DNA of 64,000 nucleotides from the NCBI GenBank assembly GCA_050950825.1, contig JBMNIH010000008.1, positions 1-64,000 of the forward strand, in the 5' to 3' direction. Below are positions 1 to 58,592 of this stretch, piece after piece. Position 1 is the stretch's first letter. The number at the start of each line of letters is the position of its first letter. The translations under genes were made by a program, and so were the position numbers. The notes under the pieces are model-generated. The model was not told the DNA's origin. It saw nothing but the letters and a program-made list of their open reading frames with translations, and searched no databases. Origin of the DNA: Clostridia bacterium. GTDB lineage: Bacteria; Bacillota; Clostridia; JAAYHZ01.

Positions 1-898
1 AATATCGTTTTAATGAATTTGTAGAACAGTTCATAGAAGGTATCAATAACGGACGTATCTTCAATAAGCCGGGAGTGCAGCTTTCATCGTTTATGTCAAA
101 AACGATATCCGGATAACCGAAAAACCTATAATACCCGGAAGAGGTAACGGCATAATCCAATAAGGTATCAATCGCAACAAAAATTTTACGGAAACTTGAG
201 TCCGGTTCATTACCGTGATACAAACCGTCCATAAATTCGTATAAAGCGTCCACACTGTTGATGCTATTGATATCGACTCCCGTTTCCCGGAGCAAATCGT
301 TTTTTACCTTTAAAAACGCCGTCTTCATTAGCGGTACCCCCGCATATATGGCGTAAATCTTGCCGTCGATAATAAAATTATCCTTTATTTGCGGATACCT
401 TTCGAAGTTCAAGATGGCTTCGGGACAAAAGCGTTCCAAGTAGGGCGACAAATCCATGTACAAGCCTTGACGGATGTATTCTTGTCCCCAATGAAAGTCC
501 GATTTGTCTTGAGTAGTGAATGTATTCACGGGAAAAATCAAGTCTCCCGATAAACCCGATTGTATATGAAGAGCTATATCGCTGCTTTTGCCTGCGGGGG
601 CGGAAGAGACAAGTTTGAATTTTATGGGAAATCCCAACTTCTCTTTGCAAAGGTTCGATAAGCTTACATAGTTGATCATGGCGTTGTCGTCGTTTTCATA
701 CCGGACACCCCAACACCGATCATTAGTATATAGGATTTCCAAAGTCGTATCCGTCATAAAAGAAAGATTTTCATCCGGCGTTGCAACCTCCTGCAGCGTA
801 TCCGAAGTTATCAAAGGGTCCGTGCTTTGGCTTTGGCAAGATGTCATAAGGAGTACAAATATCCATACCATGAAAATTGACTTATGTAATTTACTCAT
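1..898 (-). CDS. Lipoprotein, probable extracellular solute-binding protein (3' end outside window)
   Basis: Not in the ORF track because it runs off the window edge. Manual translation from ATG 898 gives MSKLHKSIFMVWIFVLLMTSCQSQ... with a lipobox (MTSC). GLYMDLSPYL and DGKIYAI segments resemble sugar ABC solute-binding proteins. Confidence 0.6.
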   Translation of the reverse strand, partial: MSKLHKSIFMVWIFVLLMTSCQSQSTDPLITSDTLQEVATPDENLSFMTDTTLEILYTNDRCWGVRYENDDNAMINYVSLSNLCKEKLGFPIKFKLVSSAPAGKSSDIALHIQSGLSGDLIFPVNTFTTQDKSDFHWGQEYIRQGLYMDLSPYLERFCPEAILNFERYPQIKDNFIIDGKIYAIYAGVPLMKTAFLKVKNDLLRETGVDINSINSVDALYEFMDGLYHGNEPDSSFRKIFVAIDTLLDYAVTSSGYYRFFGYPDIVFDINDESCTPGLLKIRPLLIPSMNCSTNSLKRY

Positions 899-3378: not shown

Positions 3379-3834
3379 TCATTTATACTCGATTCGTAAC
3401 GCCTCTTCGTCGTTCCACGGTCCGAATGCCTCCGAGTACTTGTCTTCTAAAAACACGGGAAGATACAAGGGCATCCCGTTTTCGGAAGGCGTGTTTCTCA
3501 ATTCATCGATAGTGATCCATAAATTTTTGCCTTCGTCGCTTTCTTCTTTCAGAACACCCGAAAAATCTTCCGTTTTGTAGAGAAAAACAATGTATCTCTC
3601 AAAGGTCTTCGTATTCAGCCAGTGGATAACGCCGCAATATTCTAAGTTCTTCACGACAAGTCCGGTCTCCTCCCTTACTTCACGTATCGCGCTGTCGACA
3701 AAGCTTTCGTCATTTTCTACATGCCCCCCGGGAAAGGACAAGCCCTTCCAGCTTTTTATTCGGTCCTGTACAAGAACCTTTCCCGTAGTCTTATCCCGTA
3801 TCATCACCATGTTGGTCAGCGTAACTTTACTCAT
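3379..3834 (-). CDS. NUDIX hydrolase (MutT/MutX-like)
   Basis: Nudix box GGHVENDESFVDSAIREVREETG. Confidence 0.9.
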   Translation of the reverse strand: MSKVTLTNMVMIRDKTTGKVLVQDRIKSWKGLSFPGGHVENDESFVDSAIREVREETGLVVKNLEYCGVIHWLNTKTFERYIVFLYKTEDFSGVLKEESDEGKNLWITIDELRNTPSENGMPLYLPVFLEDKYSEAFGPWNDEEALRIEYK

Positions 3835-3943
3835 GTTACCTCCACCGATGTATAAGAATTGAAAAGGCAGACATTTGTTTGCCTGCCCTTATATTATATA
3901 CTATATATTCTATATATTCTCCGGATACCTTTACTTTTCTGCT

Positions 3944-31628: not shown

Positions 31629-31735
31629 GTGGCAGCGGAATGCGAAAATGATATCGCAAACCGAAACCGGTTTTTCGTCCGACTGACAACTTCCCGTTCA
31701 GTCGGCACTTAACGCATCATTTCCTACTCTGCCAT
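31629..31735 (-). ncRNA. THF (tetrahydrofolate) riboswitch
   Basis: Minus strand reads GGCAGAGTAGG...GCGTTAAGTGCCGACTGAACGGGAAGTTGTCAGTCGGACGAAAA...CGCATTCCGCTGCC. This has the hallmark THF-aptamer sequences and closing stem, directly 5' of folT. Confidence 0.9.
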
Positions 31736-54111: not shown

Positions 54112-54849
54112 TTATGACTCCGAAATGATGTATTTATAGAAAGTCATCTGATAAATGAACCAATTTTGAGTAATTTCATTGAACTTAAAAACGATGACGG
54201 CACGATTCGGTCCTTCATAGATATTGATATTGCTTGTATCGGGTTCCTCAACGGTTTTGTACTTTGTAACGTTCATGATAGCGGTGAAGGCAATCTCTTG
54301 GTTGGAAATGCGGTTGATATCGCTTAGATTTATTTCCGTCGACTTTAAGTCGATTCTTTCTACGTTGGCAAATTGGGATTTGAATTTATCCAAATTGATA
54401 ATTTGCTTGGTATCAAAAGCATCCCTCAGATTTTGGAGCTCGTAGGCTCGTGTATATTCTTTTTGATTGATGCTGGTTACCCAAGCGTCGAGAATATCCG
54501 TAAACATTTGCGTGTTCATGATTTTCTTTAAGAAACCGATAACAATGTCACGATCTTCGATCTTGGAATTGGCATTTTCCAACTCTTTATTTAAGCTGCT
54601 GATGGTATTTTCGTAATTGTTGATGCGGACGGTTTGGCGGGTAATGGTGCTGACATGTTCGGAATTTTCGTTTCTAAGCTCTAAGTTTTCATTTTGCAAA
54701 GATTCAATATTTAAATTGACGCTTTCTTTGTACATCAACAGAGCGTTGATTTCATTTTCCTTGTTGATGTTATCCCATAAAAGGTAATTAAGCGCAACAA
54801 GTAAAGTCATTATACATATGGCGGTTATAGCTAAAATGAACTTCTTCAT
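54112..54849 (-). CDS. Membrane-anchored coiled-coil hypothetical protein
   Basis: N-terminal TM (ALNYLLWD), Asn/Glu-rich coiled coil, globular C-terminus. Confidence 0.65.
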   Translation of the reverse strand: MKKFILAITAICIMTLLVALNYLLWDNINKENEINALLMYKESVNLNIESLQNENLELRNENSEHVSTITRQTVRINNYENTISSLNKELENANSKIEDRDIVIGFLKKIMNTQMFTDILDAWVTSINQKEYTRAYELQNLRDAFDTKQIINLDKFKSQFANVERIDLKSTEINLSDINRISNQEIAFTAIMNVTKYKTVEEPDTSNINIYEGPNRAVIVFKFNEITQNWFIYQMTFYKYIISES

Positions 54850-54909: not shown

Positions 54910-54938
54910 ATTATATCATTATCACCTACCGTAGTCAA
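54910..54938 (-). promoter_or_regulatory. IS256-created hybrid sigmaA promoter
   Basis: TTGACT (from the IS end, 54938-33) - 17 nt - TATAAT (host, 54915-10), with an extended-10 TG. Confidence 0.7.
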
Positions 54939-55000
54939 GTCCAAATTAGTGTGTAAATTACCTCGGCATTTTAAATGTAGCAATCAGCCTATGGTCGCAA

Positions 55001-55167
55001 GCGTTTATGCCGCGAAAGCTGTTGACAATGAGTTACATGGCATGTTAGGCTGATAGCCGGGCATCATCCACCTTCTATGAAGCCCATCCCTGTTACTGTG
55101 GGGGATGGCCCGATGCCGGAAAACATGCCATGAGAGGCTCGTTGTCAACAGACCGTGGAATAAATGC
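55001..55167 (+). ncRNA. Conserved structured element, copy A (candidate ncRNA or ssDNA hairpin)
   Basis: Long imperfect rod with branched apex. Homologous to 56695-56862 with compensatory stem changes. Confidence 0.6.
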
Positions 55168-55171
55168 GATC

Positions 55172-56383
55172 TTAGGCAGCAGTACCGGACTTCGAATCGT
55201 TCTCTTTCCGCATCTGGTAATACAACTGCATATTGAAATATTTGTGTCCTGTTTGCCACTTTTCATGCTGTTCCATTAATAAAGCACCCATAAGCCGTAT
55301 GGCTGATGATGCATTGGGAAAGATTCGAATAACCCGTTCACGACGACGAATTTCCTGGTTGAGTCTTTCCACACTATTTGTAGTACGAAGCCGTTTTCGA
55401 TACCTTAAGGGCAGGGCCAGAACAGCAGTGATATCGTCAAATGCCTCGTCCAGAATAGCCGTGGCTTTCGGCGCCTTGGCTTCATAATTTTGGATTATCC
55501 CATCTCTGATGTTACGAGCACTCTCAAGGTCAACGGCCTCATAAAGCCGGCGTAGCTCTTCTTTAATTTCAGGTTGCAGCGCCTTCGGTGTATGATCCAA
55601 AATGTTCTTGGAAAAGTGTGTTTGACAGCGTTGCCAACCAGCGCCTTGAAAGTGCCTTCTAACAGCTTTGACCAACCCTTTATGGTCGTCAGAGGTAACC
55701 AAATCAACATTCTTTAGCCCTCTTTCTTTAAGAGAGGAAAAGAATTCACCCCAGCTGCTTTCGGATTCACTGTTGGCTAATTGAAACCCTATGATTTCGC
55801 GATAGCCTTCCTCATTCACTGCAGTGGCTATCAACAAACCACTTGATTGTACGCGACCATTTTCCCGCACATTTACAAAGATGGCATCCACTATGAGAAA
55901 GGGATAGTGGCACTGCAGAGGACGAGTTCTAAAAGCCTCCACGATGGGATCTAACTTCTTGCAAAGATCTGAGACAGTGGATCTTGAGAACTTCTTCCCG
56001 CATAGTTCCTCGGTTATTAATTCCACTTTTCGAGTGGAAACACCATTGACTACCATCTCCATCATTGCCAACACCAATGCTTGTTCACTGCGCTGATATC
56101 GGGCAAATAACTCTGTGGAGAACTGCCCGTTGCGGTGTCTGGGAATGCGCAGGGTAAGTGTACCTACTCGAGTAGTTAACTGTCTATCTCGATATCCATT
56201 GCGGTATGCGGTTCTTTCTTCGGATCGCTCGTAGGGGTCGGCCTTCAATTGCTCTGAAGACTGGGCTAAAAGAACCTGGTTAAATATTTCTTCCAATAAT
56301 TTGGCAAACGCTTCATCCTTGCCATTTGATAAAAATAATCCGTGCAAAAGTTCTCCGCTTATAGTAATATTAAATTGAGTCAT
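55172..56383 (-). CDS. IS256 (Mutator-type DDE) transposase
   Basis: RNGY, GVSTRKV, VDA, SDDHKGL, WQRCQTHF and RTTNSVERLNQEIRRR motifs. Confidence 0.96.
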   Translation of the reverse strand: MTQFNITISGELLHGLFLSNGKDEAFAKLLEEIFNQVLLAQSSEQLKADPYERSEERTAYRNGYRDRQLTTRVGTLTLRIPRHRNGQFSTELFARYQRSEQALVLAMMEMVVNGVSTRKVELITEELCGKKFSRSTVSDLCKKLDPIVEAFRTRPLQCHYPFLIVDAIFVNVRENGRVQSSGLLIATAVNEEGYREIIGFQLANSESESSWGEFFSSLKERGLKNVDLVTSDDHKGLVKAVRRHFQGAGWQRCQTHFSKNILDHTPKALQPEIKEELRRLYEAVDLESARNIRDGIIQNYEAKAPKATAILDEAFDDITAVLALPLRYRKRLRTTNSVERLNQEIRRRERVIRIFPNASSAIRLMGALLMEQHEKWQTGHKYFNMQLYYQMRKENDSKSGTAA

Positions 56384-56694
56384 TGCTCATCCCTCCTCGG
56401 GTTTGTTTTTTAGTAATTTATATTCTAACCGAGGCATGAGCTTTGGCTCAACTTCTTTTTACACCATTATATAGACTTAATCCCTACCGTTGCAAACAAA
56501 AAAAGTATCGTGATAGCGTCAATATACATTCGGAAATAAAAAGAGAGAGTTCACCCTTATGATAAGATTAAATCTTGTCTGTATCATATATCATTTCCAT
56601 CAATTTTTCCACATTTGTTTTTTTAATTGATTATTACACATCACCCCTATTCAAGAATTCATGAAGACAATAGCAAATGCACAAGTAAAGTACT

Positions 56695-56862
56695 CATTTA
56701 TTCCACGGTTCGCTTTACGACGAGCCTCTGCCGGCATGTTTAGTGGCCTCTGCGGCATCTTCCTACAGGGTGAAGCCGGATACGGCTTTGTGTGTTTGAT
56801 GCCAGGCAGACAAGCCTAACATGCCGTCTACTCATCGTAAAGCGACTTTCGCGGCATAAAGC
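56695..56862 (-). ncRNA. Conserved structured element, copy B
   Basis: Minus strand reads TTTATGCCGCGAAAG-TCGCTTTACGA-TGAG...GGCTCG-TCGTAAAGCGA-ACCGTGGAATAAATG. Same scaffold as copy A. Confidence 0.6.
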
Positions 56863-56903
56863 CTACCGTCACACGGTTACAAAGTCATAGCGGTTCAAGC
56901 TGC

Positions 56904-58388
56904 TTATGCGTCCCAAGCCAGTGTGGTCATATTCTTTAGCCACTTCATACTGCTCCTTTCCAAACCATGTATGTGACGTCTGGTATCTTCCGCATACGTC
57001 CATTTTGAATGTCTTCTTCTCAGATCTCTTATCAATTCTTCTTGTGCTTCACGCCTTTCCTTTTGCTTTTTTCGTTGTTTTTGATATTTTAGCAAGTCAA
57101 GAATCTTACCGCCGTTTCTTTTGTACGCTCTGAGCCTTGCCATGCGGTCGCAACCCAATTCGCTCCATCCCATTGGTCTGCTGCTCATTCTTGCCGACAA
57201 TACATGGCTTATTTGCCCTTCTATGCAATATGTCCAGCCGCTTGTTTCTTCCACTCGGGTTTTTATCCCTTGCCAATGATTTAGAAAATATCTTAACGCA
57301 TCTTCCACTTCTTGCTTCTTGTTTTCACTTTCCGTAACCTTCAGGATCTGCTCATAGATATTCTTCAATTCCTTTTTGTCCAAACGATTCAAGGCTCCCC
57401 AAATCCAGTCTTTCACCTCGTCCGCGCTATCGTAAAGATGCGCCACTGACCTGTTTATATATTTCATCATATGGTATTTATCAAGGACATATTTGCTGTT
57501 CTCCAAATATTCGCATCCTTTTTTTATCCACGAAGCTCCGTCTCCGACTACGTATATTCTCTCAAGATAGTCCGTATCGTATGTTTTTTCTATGTATTCG
57601 GCAACCTCCATCCAAAGCTTTTCGTTGCCTTTGCCACCCTCGTAAATACCGCAAAAGTATTTTTTTCCGATCAGCTTATATCTGGGATTCTTGGATGCTT
57701 CCCCCGATTCATTGATAATATCCTCGAATACACAAACAAGCTTAGGCATCAGGGTATTAATCTTATGGCCCCTCGCATCTCGCTTCAAATCGCCCTTTTC
57801 ATTCCAAAACTGTGCCGCCACATGATCTTCATCGGCTATGACATGAAGCCTTTTTATCTTCTTCTTTCCTTCCGGTTCCGGCATCGGCATGTCCGCCTCA
57901 ATCTCATGTACCAGATCCATCACGGCTTGTTTGCTAATGCCTTCTTCCGCTTTTATGCTTGCATTCTCTCCGCCTTTGCGGTAACTGCTGTCTATACTTT
58001 CTTCCAAGGCTCTCGCAGCTGCGCCTAGCGTTACCTTCTGGTGCGGTTCAAATCCGAGCACCTGATCCAAAAGATATACATACTCACCCGTTCCTTTCGC
58101 ACAATATCCGGTTCGGCAGAATTCAACCTTACCCATGACATCTACGATGGTTTTCTTTTTGTTCCTGTGCTCGACATTCCAATACTTTTTTCTCACGCTG
58201 CTTTCTCGTATATCGTTATCAGCTTTCTCGTACAAATCCGCTATAAGGCTGACCGCTAACGTTGACGTAACTTTATTAACGAGTGCAGTCAAATCATCGG
58301 CATCTTTTTTACCTGCCAGAATATCACCCATCATTTTTTCAATTTCGACTAACCCATTTTCAATAAAATGTAGTATACTTTTATACAT
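56904..58388 (-). CDS. ISLre2 (UPF0236) transposase
   Basis: YLLDQVLG, SYR, ADEDHV, GDGASWI, LDKYH, EGQISHVLSARMSSRPMGWS motifs. Confidence 0.92.
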   Translation of the reverse strand: MYKSILHFIENGLVEIEKMMGDILAGKKDADDLTALVNKVTSTLAVSLIADLYEKADNDIRESSVRKKYWNVEHRNKKKTIVDVMGKVEFCRTGYCAKGTGEYVYLLDQVLGFEPHQKVTLGAAARALEESIDSSYRKGGENASIKAEEGISKQAVMDLVHEIEADMPMPEPEGKKKIKRLHVIADEDHVAAQFWNEKGDLKRDARGHKINTLMPKLVCVFEDIINESGEASKNPRYKLIGKKYFCGIYEGGKGNEKLWMEVAEYIEKTYDTDYLERIYVVGDGASWIKKGCEYLENSKYVLDKYHMMKYINRSVAHLYDSADEVKDWIWGALNRLDKKELKNIYEQILKVTESENKKQEVEDALRYFLNHWQGIKTRVEETSGWTYCIEGQISHVLSARMSSRPMGWSELGCDRMARLRAYKRNGGKILDLLKYQKQRKKQKERREAQEELIRDLRRRHSKWTYAEDTRRHIHGLERSSMKWLKNMTTLAWDA

Positions 58389-58592
58389 AGAGGACACCTT
58401 CCTTTGTGATTTTTTGTATGGAAATTTAATCATATCACAATCGGGGTCCTCTTTCTATTTGTTATATTCTTCCATTGATTATTATCCGAAACTTACTTTA
58501 CGCTAATAAGTATCGTAAACATCAAGATGCCGTCGCCCTTTATGTTATAATAATCGTTAAGCAAGTTAAATATACGCGTTGCGGAGGTAACT

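Follow-up and report, generated by a model that had tools for sequence, protein, structure and literature searches.

Two insertion sequences (ISs) of different families in the window, the whole 64-kb stretch of DNA analysed here, carry the same hairpin module of ~174 nt (148-181 nt across copies), whose sequence and structure mark it as very probably a Clostridial variant of the ssoA-type (palA-type) single-strand origin (sso), at which the lagging strand of rolling-circle plasmids starts. Its homology, structure, strand polarity, position within ISs and spread among IS families are established. Elements of this kind are known, but the literature searched yielded no description of one in such a setting. 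The best explanation of the data as a whole, to which we give a slightly better than even chance, would be an ssoA variant that provides the start of second-strand synthesis on an IS circle.

The shared hairpin and its host insertion sequences

An earlier note on this DNA had described one structured element in the non-coding 3' ends of both ISs, and covariance model (CM) R1 located both copies there, with the bounds listed in Table 1. Aligned end to end, the two hairpins (subfamilies A and F) were identical in 79% of columns and shared the conserved blocks of the proposed scaffold. The reported stem exchange was also found, with pairing kept, as CTGTTGACAA/TTGTCAACAG in one copy and TCGCTTTACGA/TCGTAAAGCGA in the other. 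Each copy folded as one long hairpin, and none of 200 shuffled sequences folded as stably as either.

Both copies lie inside their own IS, beyond the stop codon of the transposase and short of the terminal repeat. In the orientations that the note had read, hairpin A is antisense to the transposase of its IS256-family host, with its 3' end adjoining the stop codon, and hairpin F is sense to the transposase of its ISLre2-family host, ~40 nt past the stop codon. The IS256 element was flanked by an 8-bp duplication, CCTACCGT (54925-54932 and 56483-56490), and the ISLre2 element by a 9-bp duplication, AAGTATCGT (56503-56511 and 58508-58516). In an empty-site contig, position 54932 was joined directly to 58508. 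The ISLre2 element had also been called Mutator-type, which does not apply in the strict sense, as its transposase belongs to Pfam UPF0236 and NCBIfam ISLre2.

The RSB-like box at the 5' base of hairpin A has ACCGTGGAATAAATG (55152-55166) as its partner. The promoter-like layout of this hairpin consists of TTGACA (55022-55027) in a stem, a spacing of 18 nt, and TG-n-TAGGCT (55043-55051) at a three-way junction.

Table 1. Features of the two hairpin-bearing insertion sequences in the window
Feature	Position	Strand	Basis
IS256-family IS, 1550 bp	54933-56482	-	ends by copy comparison, contig joints, empty-site contig and sequence
ssoA-like hairpin, subfamily A	54998-55171	+	CM R1, 172.6 bits; fold -83.5 kcal/mol, z = -7.4
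RSB-like box TTTATGCCGCGAAAG, 5' base of hairpin A	55004-55018	+	12/13 identity to published RSB; pattern match
Promoter-like layout, hairpin A	55022-55051	+	read from sequence and fold; conservation across copies
IS256-family transposase, 403 aa	55172-56383	-	ORF; Pfam Transposase_mut, E 2.9e-132
ISLre2-family IS, 1996 bp	56512-58507	-	1996-nt contig of exactly the same span; sequence
ssoA-like hairpin, subfamily F	56690-56866	-	CM R1, 163.5 bits; fold -78.2 kcal/mol, z = -7.1
ISLre2-family transposase, 509 aa	56904-58433	-	Pfam UPF0236, E 5.4e-65; NCBIfam ISLre2, 257.8 bits (cut-off 200)

Conservation of structure and strand polarity

Among 58 full-length copies (50 distinct), which are related sequences in an alignment fitted to the model structure, 93.5% of the cells were paired, compared with 88.3 ± 0.3% in shuffles, and 25 of the 58 pairs had changed on both sides, compared with 12.9 ± 1.8 in shuffles; none of 500 shuffles reached either value. 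Slid controls were 31.6-45.3% paired. The compensatory change described from the two window copies was thereby extended to the larger alignment. The polarity ascribed to the element also held, since one G·U (G·T) pair was invariant in all 50 distinct copies and the strand assigned to the hairpin folded more stably in 49 of them; the advantage was 13 kcal/mol under RNA and 7 kcal/mol under DNA parameters. Within the IS256 clade, stems were maintained through compensatory change, which argues that the module is under selection during its residence in an IS. In the tree of modules (FastTree, ~175 columns), the branching is only indicative.

These data bear on the reading that the module is a neutral or selfish passenger, that is, a plasmid sso captured via recombination at short conserved boxes and useless to the IS. 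The gap between stop codon and terminal repeat would then be the one site of the IS that tolerates inserts. Such a capture would be consistent with the naming of RSB as a recombination site for plasmid cointegrates (in the portion of PMC5703833 consulted), with the constant position in the 3' non-coding gap, where an sso-less IS256 element has only 54 nt, and with the success of sso-less relatives. A functionless 170-nt insert should decay, yet pairing and double changes were retained at the levels given above, and IS lineages with 15-28% divergence between their transposases had kept the -35 hexamer and the wobbles fixed. We therefore regard the passenger reading as quite improbable.

Relationship to ssoA-type single-strand origins

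The published RSB is 5'-TTATGCCGAGAAAATTT, and the published CS-6 is TAGCGT (excerpt of PMC4598088). The element's TTATGCCGCGAAA was identical to the published RSB TTATGCCGAGAAA at 12 of 13 positions. R1, for which only the six IS-borne subfamilies served as training set, was applied to two plasmids and gave one significant full-length match on each, at 3765-3932 (+) of pT181 (40.5 bits, E 3e-10) and at 635-801 (+) of pE194 (30.2 bits, E 2e-7). The next best match reached 8.1 bits, and the opposite strands 3.7 (pT181) and 5.5 bits (pE194). The sole RSB match of each plasmid fell inside the R1 match, and the 3' box TGGAATAAA was common to both. According to the accessible parts of PMC5703833 and PMC4595007, ssoA is an orientation-specific element of ~160 nt that bears RSB; it folds in single-stranded form, and RNA polymerase does the priming.

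The earlier note had not recognised the element as a named motif, and had held that a match to a described one would remove its novelty. With the published RSB box at its base, and with a model built only from IS-borne copies matching the RSB-bearing palindromes of pT181 and pE194, the motif itself is not new; the novelty that remains is that of the module inside DDE insertion sequences.

In ssoA, the primer is 20 nt long and stops at CS-6, a defining box located in the terminal loop. Among the 50 distinct IS-borne copies, the apex contained exact TAGCG[TA] in 2, AGCG in 16, CAGAGC in 14 and none of these in 18; both window copies were without CS-6, and the apex box in pT181 and pE194 is TAGCGA. 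The RSB-like box was present in 49 of the 50 distinct copies and in all six subfamilies of this genome. The subfamilies were found by blastn; for the fetched loci, the scan pattern included part of this box and TGTTAGGCT, and the invariance of both there partly reflects that. TTGACA was matched at five or more of six positions in 45 of the 50, at 16-18 nt from TGTTAGGCT, and most of its columns (29-32) were near-invariant while adjacent stem columns covaried freely. A simple promoter scan did not call the -35/-10 of the hairpin, because TAGGCT matches TATAAT at only 3 of 6 positions.

The -35/TG-n-TAGGCT layout, together with the statement in the excerpt of PMC4595007 that folded ssos act as promoters, could also point to an Frpo-like single-stranded-DNA promoter that activates IS genes while the IS is single-stranded. 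On a circularised IS256 strand, transcription would, by the geometry inferred, run across the junction and into the transposase gene, in transposase sense. In IS3, ISLre2, IS21, ISNCY and IS6-like carriers, the geometry would instead yield RNA antisense to the transposase, so that the idea fits one carrier family only and appears very improbable.

No less improbable is a structured RNA, made either as a separate non-coding RNA or as part of a 3' UTR, which had been the leading idea of the earlier note. Of the candidates that it listed, folded single-stranded DNA came nearest, and its preference for RNA is unsupported in view of the homology to ssoA, which works as single-stranded DNA. The G·U wobbles would suit RNA as well as DNA, and contigs from two metatranscriptome runs covered the hairpin at a depth similar to that of the transposase gene. 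These contigs reveal neither ends, strand nor level, and may stem from DNA carry-over; they were accordingly used neither for nor against an RNA. In the Rfam search that had been suggested, none of 4227 covariance models matched the element, whether gathering scores or an E of 10 served as the cut-off, which goes against a known RNA but says nothing on DNA origins, as Rfam consists of RNA families. In addition, the element is antisense in IS256, outside the transposase mRNA, and part of the 3' UTR in sense carriers, so that no single RNA role fits both.

Distribution among insertion sequence families and genomes

The genome contained 29 copies of the module in six subfamilies, all within ISs, namely IS256 (antisense to the transposase), IS3 and ISLre2 elements (both sense). 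Elsewhere in Clostridia, the hairpin was also found after IS21, ISNCY and IS6-like transposases, and a survey of 401 genomes of the class found the subtype in 21. Among 80 representative loci, 37 belonged to IS256 (all antisense), and 7 to IS3, 6 to ISLre2, 7 to IS6-like, 3 to IS21 and 2 to ISNCY elements (all sense). Six loci had no adjacent recognised transposase, and these were mostly the lowest-scoring copies. One carrier had an IS630-type (DDE_3) transposase; the IS630 family is a cut-and-paste family. Homology ended abruptly at the hairpin base in every carrier. The proposal that a strand-specific, structure-constrained module moves independently of the transposase, originally drawn from two families, thus gains further homologs, sharp borders and at least six carrier families.

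Other settings were also considered. A MITE-like non-autonomous transposon was rejected, as no duplication was found at the module borders of 27 loci and none of the 29 genome copies lay outside an IS. A role on the chromosomal lagging strand was likewise rejected, the sso strand being the G-rich strand in 13 of the 29 copies, with no bias. An sso-less ISLre2-F copy tried as an 'empty site' ends at the stop codon and was uninformative.

Elements without the module were present in the same genome, including seven identical copies of an sso-less IS256 relative as well as sso-less ISLre2-like and IS3-like elements. These elements indicate that the module is not needed for proliferation.

The success of these relatives, and module borders that are sharp and identical in all carriers, would also fit a portable origin that serves not the IS but the plasmid or conjugative element receiving it, as a host-adapted start of the second strand after rolling-circle replication or conjugative entry. 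In the portions of the sources at hand, ssos are described as host-specific, modular and shuffled among plasmids (PMC5703833) and as required by conjugative elements (PMC4595007). Against such an origin, all 29 copies were located on contigs of 143-728 kb rather than on small replicons; blastn of 72,556 plasmid records and a pattern scan of viral contigs gave no match to the module. Orientation was fixed per IS family without exception (37 IS256, 25 sense), which common descent could explain, and the compensatory changes within the IS256 clade imply that the module is under selection as part of the IS. A portable origin for carrier replicons is therefore judged unlikely.

Possible role in transposition

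IS3, IS21 and IS256 are copy-out-paste-in families (PMC3299598 and bioRxiv 2023.06.07.543989, both in part). In this pathway, one IS strand is circularised to give a figure-eight, and that strand, once displaced, would resemble the single-stranded circle of a rolling-circle plasmid. By analogy with ssoA, the folded single strand may be read as a promoter by host RNA polymerase. With the 3' arm as template, this enzyme would synthesise a short RNA primer in the direction of the apex, and a DNA polymerase would copy the remaining strand. The sso would then be a built-in start of complementary-strand synthesis, leading to a double-stranded IS circle, which would integrate. We infer the priming activity and its use in transposition from this analogy, and we rate RNA-polymerase priming of the complementary strand on a single-stranded IS circle just short of an even chance.

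The sso is predicted to read on the circularised strand. The predicted donor would be the right end in IS3, ISLre2 and IS21, with the transposase-sense strand circularised, and the left end in these IS256 elements, with the antisense strand (the + strand in the window) circularised. In IS2, the right end is the sole donor, and hence the sense strand is joined (PMC3299598, in part), in agreement with the sense orientation in IS3 carriers. In ISCth4, a studied relative of the IS256 family, the left repeat is the recipient in the solved strand-transfer complex, which is the opposite of the IS256 prediction made here, although the scheme of that study depicts transfer from left to right.

Contigs of DNA run X5 joined the two ends of the window's IS256 element via 6-nt spacers, as would be expected of a circle or of a tandem junction. 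The spacers AAAATA, GTTTT(+T) and TC(+CCGT) had no exact match to any flank of the copies in this genome.

The transposition literature examined, as far as its accessible text goes, has host replication converting the figure-eight and contains no demonstration of a free single-stranded IS circle for any family. Among the matches listed, no paper joined single-strand origins with figure-eights or IS circles, and only the review PMC6199540 mentioned both single-strand origins and IS256, ISLre2, IS3 or IS21. PMC12016507, which treats an IS in pGK12, has the terminal repeats of the IS as its subject and not an sso inside it.

Several observations speak against the explanation as a whole, among them thriving sso-less relatives, the absence of CS-6 from most copies, a weak -10 box (3/6), the IS630-type carrier and the six loci with no recognised transposase alongside.

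Implications

Copy-out-paste-in is the pathway of most bacterial IS families. Where selection maintains an origin that functions only on single-stranded DNA, as in IS3, IS21, IS256, ISLre2 and further elements, this would be indirect evidence of a single-stranded IS intermediate. We propose tentatively, and with somewhat less confidence than for priming itself, that copy-out-paste-in ISs release a true single-stranded circle and that in Clostridia several IS families, each independently, acquired the lagging-strand origin of a plasmid for its conversion to double-stranded DNA. If so, the formation of an IS circle would correspond in mechanism to the latter half of rolling-circle plasmid replication, and the orientation of the captured origin would reveal the donor end and the circularised strand of each family, giving a prediction for families in which the donor is uncertain. 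The module also shows that replication origins can pass as modules between plasmids and transposons. If it serves carrier plasmids only, ISs would be vehicles of host-adapted origins, with a bearing on plasmid host range.

Comparison with known systems

The IS110 bridge RNA and the IS605 omega RNA are family-specific RNAs, each of which serves as guide for its own recombinase or nuclease. Like them, the module is structured, conserved and located in a non-coding IS end, but it accompanies transposases that are unrelated to one another, lies in either orientation and shares homology with a DNA origin. The Frpo/ssi sites of conjugative plasmids are similar by description, being folded single-stranded DNA used as an RNA polymerase promoter and primer site (cited in the part of PMC4595007 consulted), but they are located in plasmid leading regions. 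The origins sso1 of ICEBs1 and the sso of Tn916 likewise belong to chromosomally integrated mobile elements with a single-stranded stage (PMC4595007, same part). Those elements use rolling-circle replication and relaxase-led single-strand transfer, whereas the carriers here are simple DDE ISs without relaxase or Rep.

The ssoA/palA origins of the pT181, pE194 and pMV158 group share with the module an imperfect palindrome of ~160-175 nt, a strand-specific fold, and an RSB box at the 5' base that pairs with TGGAATAAA at the 3' base. They differ in location, since ssoA belongs to a Rep-encoding plasmid that replicates by rolling circle, where it lies on the displaced strand, whereas all 29 copies in this genome lie in DDE ISs on large chromosomal contigs. 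The IS module also has C in its RSB where ssoA plasmids have A (GCCGCGAAA), mostly lacks CS-6, and has an interior (CATGTTAGGCT, AGAGGCTC and the three-way junction) that sets it apart as a subtype of its own.

Two hairpin copies and their insertion sequences

The two copies of the module in the window aligned end to end with 79% column identity. Both features described in an earlier note, made from the sequence alone, for the 3' ends of an IS256 and an ISLre2 element were present: the conserved blocks and the stem whose sequence had been exchanged. Folding gave a single long hairpin for each copy (-83.5 and -78.2 kcal/mol, z ~ -7), and none of 200 shuffles of either copy was as stable as the native fold. 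Both transposase genes lie on the minus strand; the hairpin is therefore antisense to the IS256 gene and sense to the ISLre2 gene, as that note had stated. Only 29 bp separates the two ISs.

In contigs of two DNA metagenome runs (X10 and X5), position 54932 was joined to 58508 without either IS, which makes the two insertions recent and polymorphic. DNA contigs of run X5 also joined 56482 back to 54933, at three junctions where the IS256 ends meet across spacers of 6 nt; this shows abutted IS256 ends, in a circle or a tandem copy; the spacers could not be matched to either flank. The empty site and these junctions together indicate that the ISs are active in natural populations.

Features of the window, the genome (contigs C2 to C11), and carrier loci of other genomes (L043, L081, L121)
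Feature	Position	Strand	Remarks
Module, subfamily A	54998-55171	+	
Module, subfamily F	56690-56866	-	
IS256-family transposase gene	55172-56383	-	Pfam Transposase_mut, E 2.9e-132
ISLre2-family transposase gene	56904-58433	-	UPF0236; NCBIfam ISLre2 257.8 bits vs cut-off 200
IS256 element	54933-56482		target duplication CCTACCGT
ISLre2 element	56512-58507		target duplication AAGTATCGT
Gap between the ISs	56483-56511		
Strong outward hybrid promoter	54910-54938	-	11/12 matches; the six terminal bases of the IS256 end form the -35, TTGACT; TG-extended TATAAT 17 nt after the -35 in flanking DNA
245-aa ORF	54112-54849	-	target of the hybrid promoter
Tetrahydrofolate (THF) riboswitch aptamer	31631-31733	-	97.3 bits vs gathering score 36
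Module-less IS256 relative	C11:25855, C2:333116, C4:36181, C4:454532, C7:208080, C7:234719, C8:118784		
Nested insertions	C7:3767, C6:115098		
Rearrangement joint	C2:38741-39260		
475-491-aa DDE transposase	L043:5561-6985, L081:229-1701		and relatives
281-aa ORF	L121:5785-6630		Desnuesiella massiliensis contig

Copies within the genome

Blastn identified 29 copies in this genome, and the same 29 were recovered by the covariance model. They formed six subfamilies: A, B, and C in three IS256 lineages (antisense, 4-16 nt past the stop codon), D in an IS3 element (sense, 11 nt after orfB), and E and F after two distant ISLre2 transposases (sense). Copy-to-copy similarity extended beyond the hairpin as far as the IS termini; the hairpin is therefore internal to each IS.

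At the rearrangement joint between two module-bearing ISs, an A-type module minus its first 5 nt was fused straight onto the 3' non-coding region of one ISLre2-F copy, with the IS256 terminal repeat absent and a second, F-type module 180 nt off. Nested IS256-A copies were found just ahead of the start codon of a module-less IS256 element and in an ISLre2-F copy, within its 3' region.

Distribution and carriers

Scanning 185,579 species genomes with a sequence pattern yielded at least 104 matching stretches. Among the matches listed, nearly all were Clostridia from digesters and sludge, and named isolates included Acetivibrio, Anaerobacterium, Thermoclostridium, and Desnuesiella; a few bins, with matches on short contigs, were labelled as other phyla. 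Among 401 genomes from 217 genera sampled evenly across the class, this genome counted, 21 genomes from 16 genera carried the element.

Among the matches listed, R1, a covariance model built from the six IS-borne subfamilies of this genome alone, identified 52 + 22 copies of full length in other genomes. With one representative per own subfamily these made 80 loci, several of which share a MAG and are not independent. The carriers were IS256 (37 loci, all antisense), IS3 (7, sense), a DDE transposase of 475-491 aa that scores under the IS6 cut-off (7, sense), ISLre2 (6, sense), IS21 (3, sense, after istB), ISNCY (2, sense), IS630-type (1, antisense, a short 148-nt copy), and one ambiguous carrier. 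Contig ends lay where the carrier would be at 10 loci, and no recognised transposase was adjacent at 6. Only for some of the carriers would the element make sense as an RNA or as a switch controlling transposase expression.

Homology between carriers began ~4-6 nt before TTTATGCC and ended ~4 nt past ATAAATGC; being limited to the hairpin, it shows that what moved was the hairpin itself. A quick tree of the modules, indicative only, placed the IS256-borne copies in one clade, with sense-type copies of IS3, ISLre2, IS21, and IS6-like carriers intermixed.

The 475-491-aa transposase has a zinc-ribbon-like N-terminus, does not reach the NCBIfam thresholds of IS6, IS3, and IS66 (70.9 bits vs 125), and may represent an unclassified IS family; its stop codon abuts the module. 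On a Desnuesiella massiliensis contig, the usual transposase position is taken by a 281-aa ORF that matches nothing in Pfam and stops within the first part of the module; the flanks are like those of other carriers. A contig of run X10 (joint 55169 to 55001) linked the end of one module to the beginning of a second with 18 other bases in between, and two modules thus stand in tandem somewhere in that metagenome.

Structure and resemblance to plasmid single-strand origins

Covariation was assessed in 58 copies (50 distinct). In this alignment of related sequences, which was fitted to the model, 93.5% of cells were paired (88.3 +/- 0.3 in shuffles) and both-sided changes were found at 25 of 58 pairs (12.9 +/- 1.8 in shuffles); neither value was reached by any of 500 shuffles. 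Sliding the partners along as a control gave 32-45% pairing. One G·U pair was invariant and further G·U pairs were frequent, and the complementary strand was less stable in 49 of the 50 distinct copies. One strand of the element is thus designed for folding, whether it is present as RNA or as single-stranded DNA.

A TTGACA-like hexamer (at least 5/6) lay within the stem in 45 of the 50 distinct copies, 16-18 nt ahead of TG-n-TAGGCT, which is located at a three-way junction with its A unpaired. Most hexamer columns (29-32) were nearly invariant, and adjacent stem columns covaried freely. By analogy, this layout would suit a promoter made of folded DNA, from which transcription would run towards the apex and be templated by the 3' arm; single-strand origins (ssos) are described in this way in PMC4595007. 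TAGGCT matches TATAAT at 3/6 positions, the scan pattern itself accounts in part for its invariance in the fetched loci, and a simple promoter scan did not call the hairpin -35/-10.

Rfam contained no family matching the element. Its 5' base, TTTATGCCGCGAAAG, resembles the RSB box of plasmid single-strand origins, given in PMC4598088 as 5'-TTATGCCGAGAAAATTT together with a second box, CS-6 (TAGCGT). R1, which contains no plasmid sequence, was searched against pT181 and pE194. Each gave a single significant full-length match (pT181, 3765-3932, 40.5 bits, E 3e-10; pE194, 635-801, 30.2 bits, E 2e-7), all others being <=8.1 bits. The only RSB match of each plasmid falls within its R1 match, and the 5' box and its 3' partner TGGAATAAA are common to the IS copies and both plasmid matches. 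A review (PMC5703833) locates RSB in palA (ssoA), the lagging-strand origin of pT181, and describes ssoA as ~160 nt long, working in one orientation, folding single-stranded, and primed by RNA polymerase. From the RSB box, the plasmid matches, and this description, the element is read as a probable ssoA-type origin of a Clostridial subtype.

Possible role in transposition

IS3, IS21, and IS256 are reported to transpose by copy-out-paste-in (PMC3299598; bioRxiv 2023.06.07.543989): one strand is cut at the donor end and then closes on itself beyond the opposite end, and the resulting figure-eight becomes a double-stranded circle through "host replication". If copying of the IS were primed by the 3'-OH of the flank, it would displace the strand that had been joined, and this strand would come off as a single-stranded, closed circle. 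In formal terms such a circle is a rolling-circle plasmid intermediate, and any sso that it carried would prime the complementary strand. We infer, as the best explanation, that the sso primes the complement of a single-stranded IS circle. In IS2, the right end is the only donor according to PMC3299598, so the sense strand is joined; priming by the sso fits this strand choice and predicts that the left end is the donor in the IS256 elements studied here.

The module is dispensable, since a second IS256-family element without it, with 54 nt from stop codon to IS end, was present in seven copies with identical 406-aa transposases. The sso might be a tolerated passenger captured at recombination-prone boxes, but sustained compensatory evolution within the IS256 clade argues against a functionless one. 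It might also serve carrier plasmids or conjugative elements instead of the IS. A role on the chromosome's lagging-strand template was not supported (13 of 29 copies).

Comparison with known origins

The motif, which the earlier note had not recognised as a named one, was already known, as the RSB box and the matches in pT181 and pE194 indicate. Its residence in DDE insertion sequences is the part without a description in the literature searched, where result lists were covered in part. Compared with ssoA, the element carries an exact CS-6 in 2 of 50 copies and in neither window copy, and its place is not on a rolling-circle replicon.
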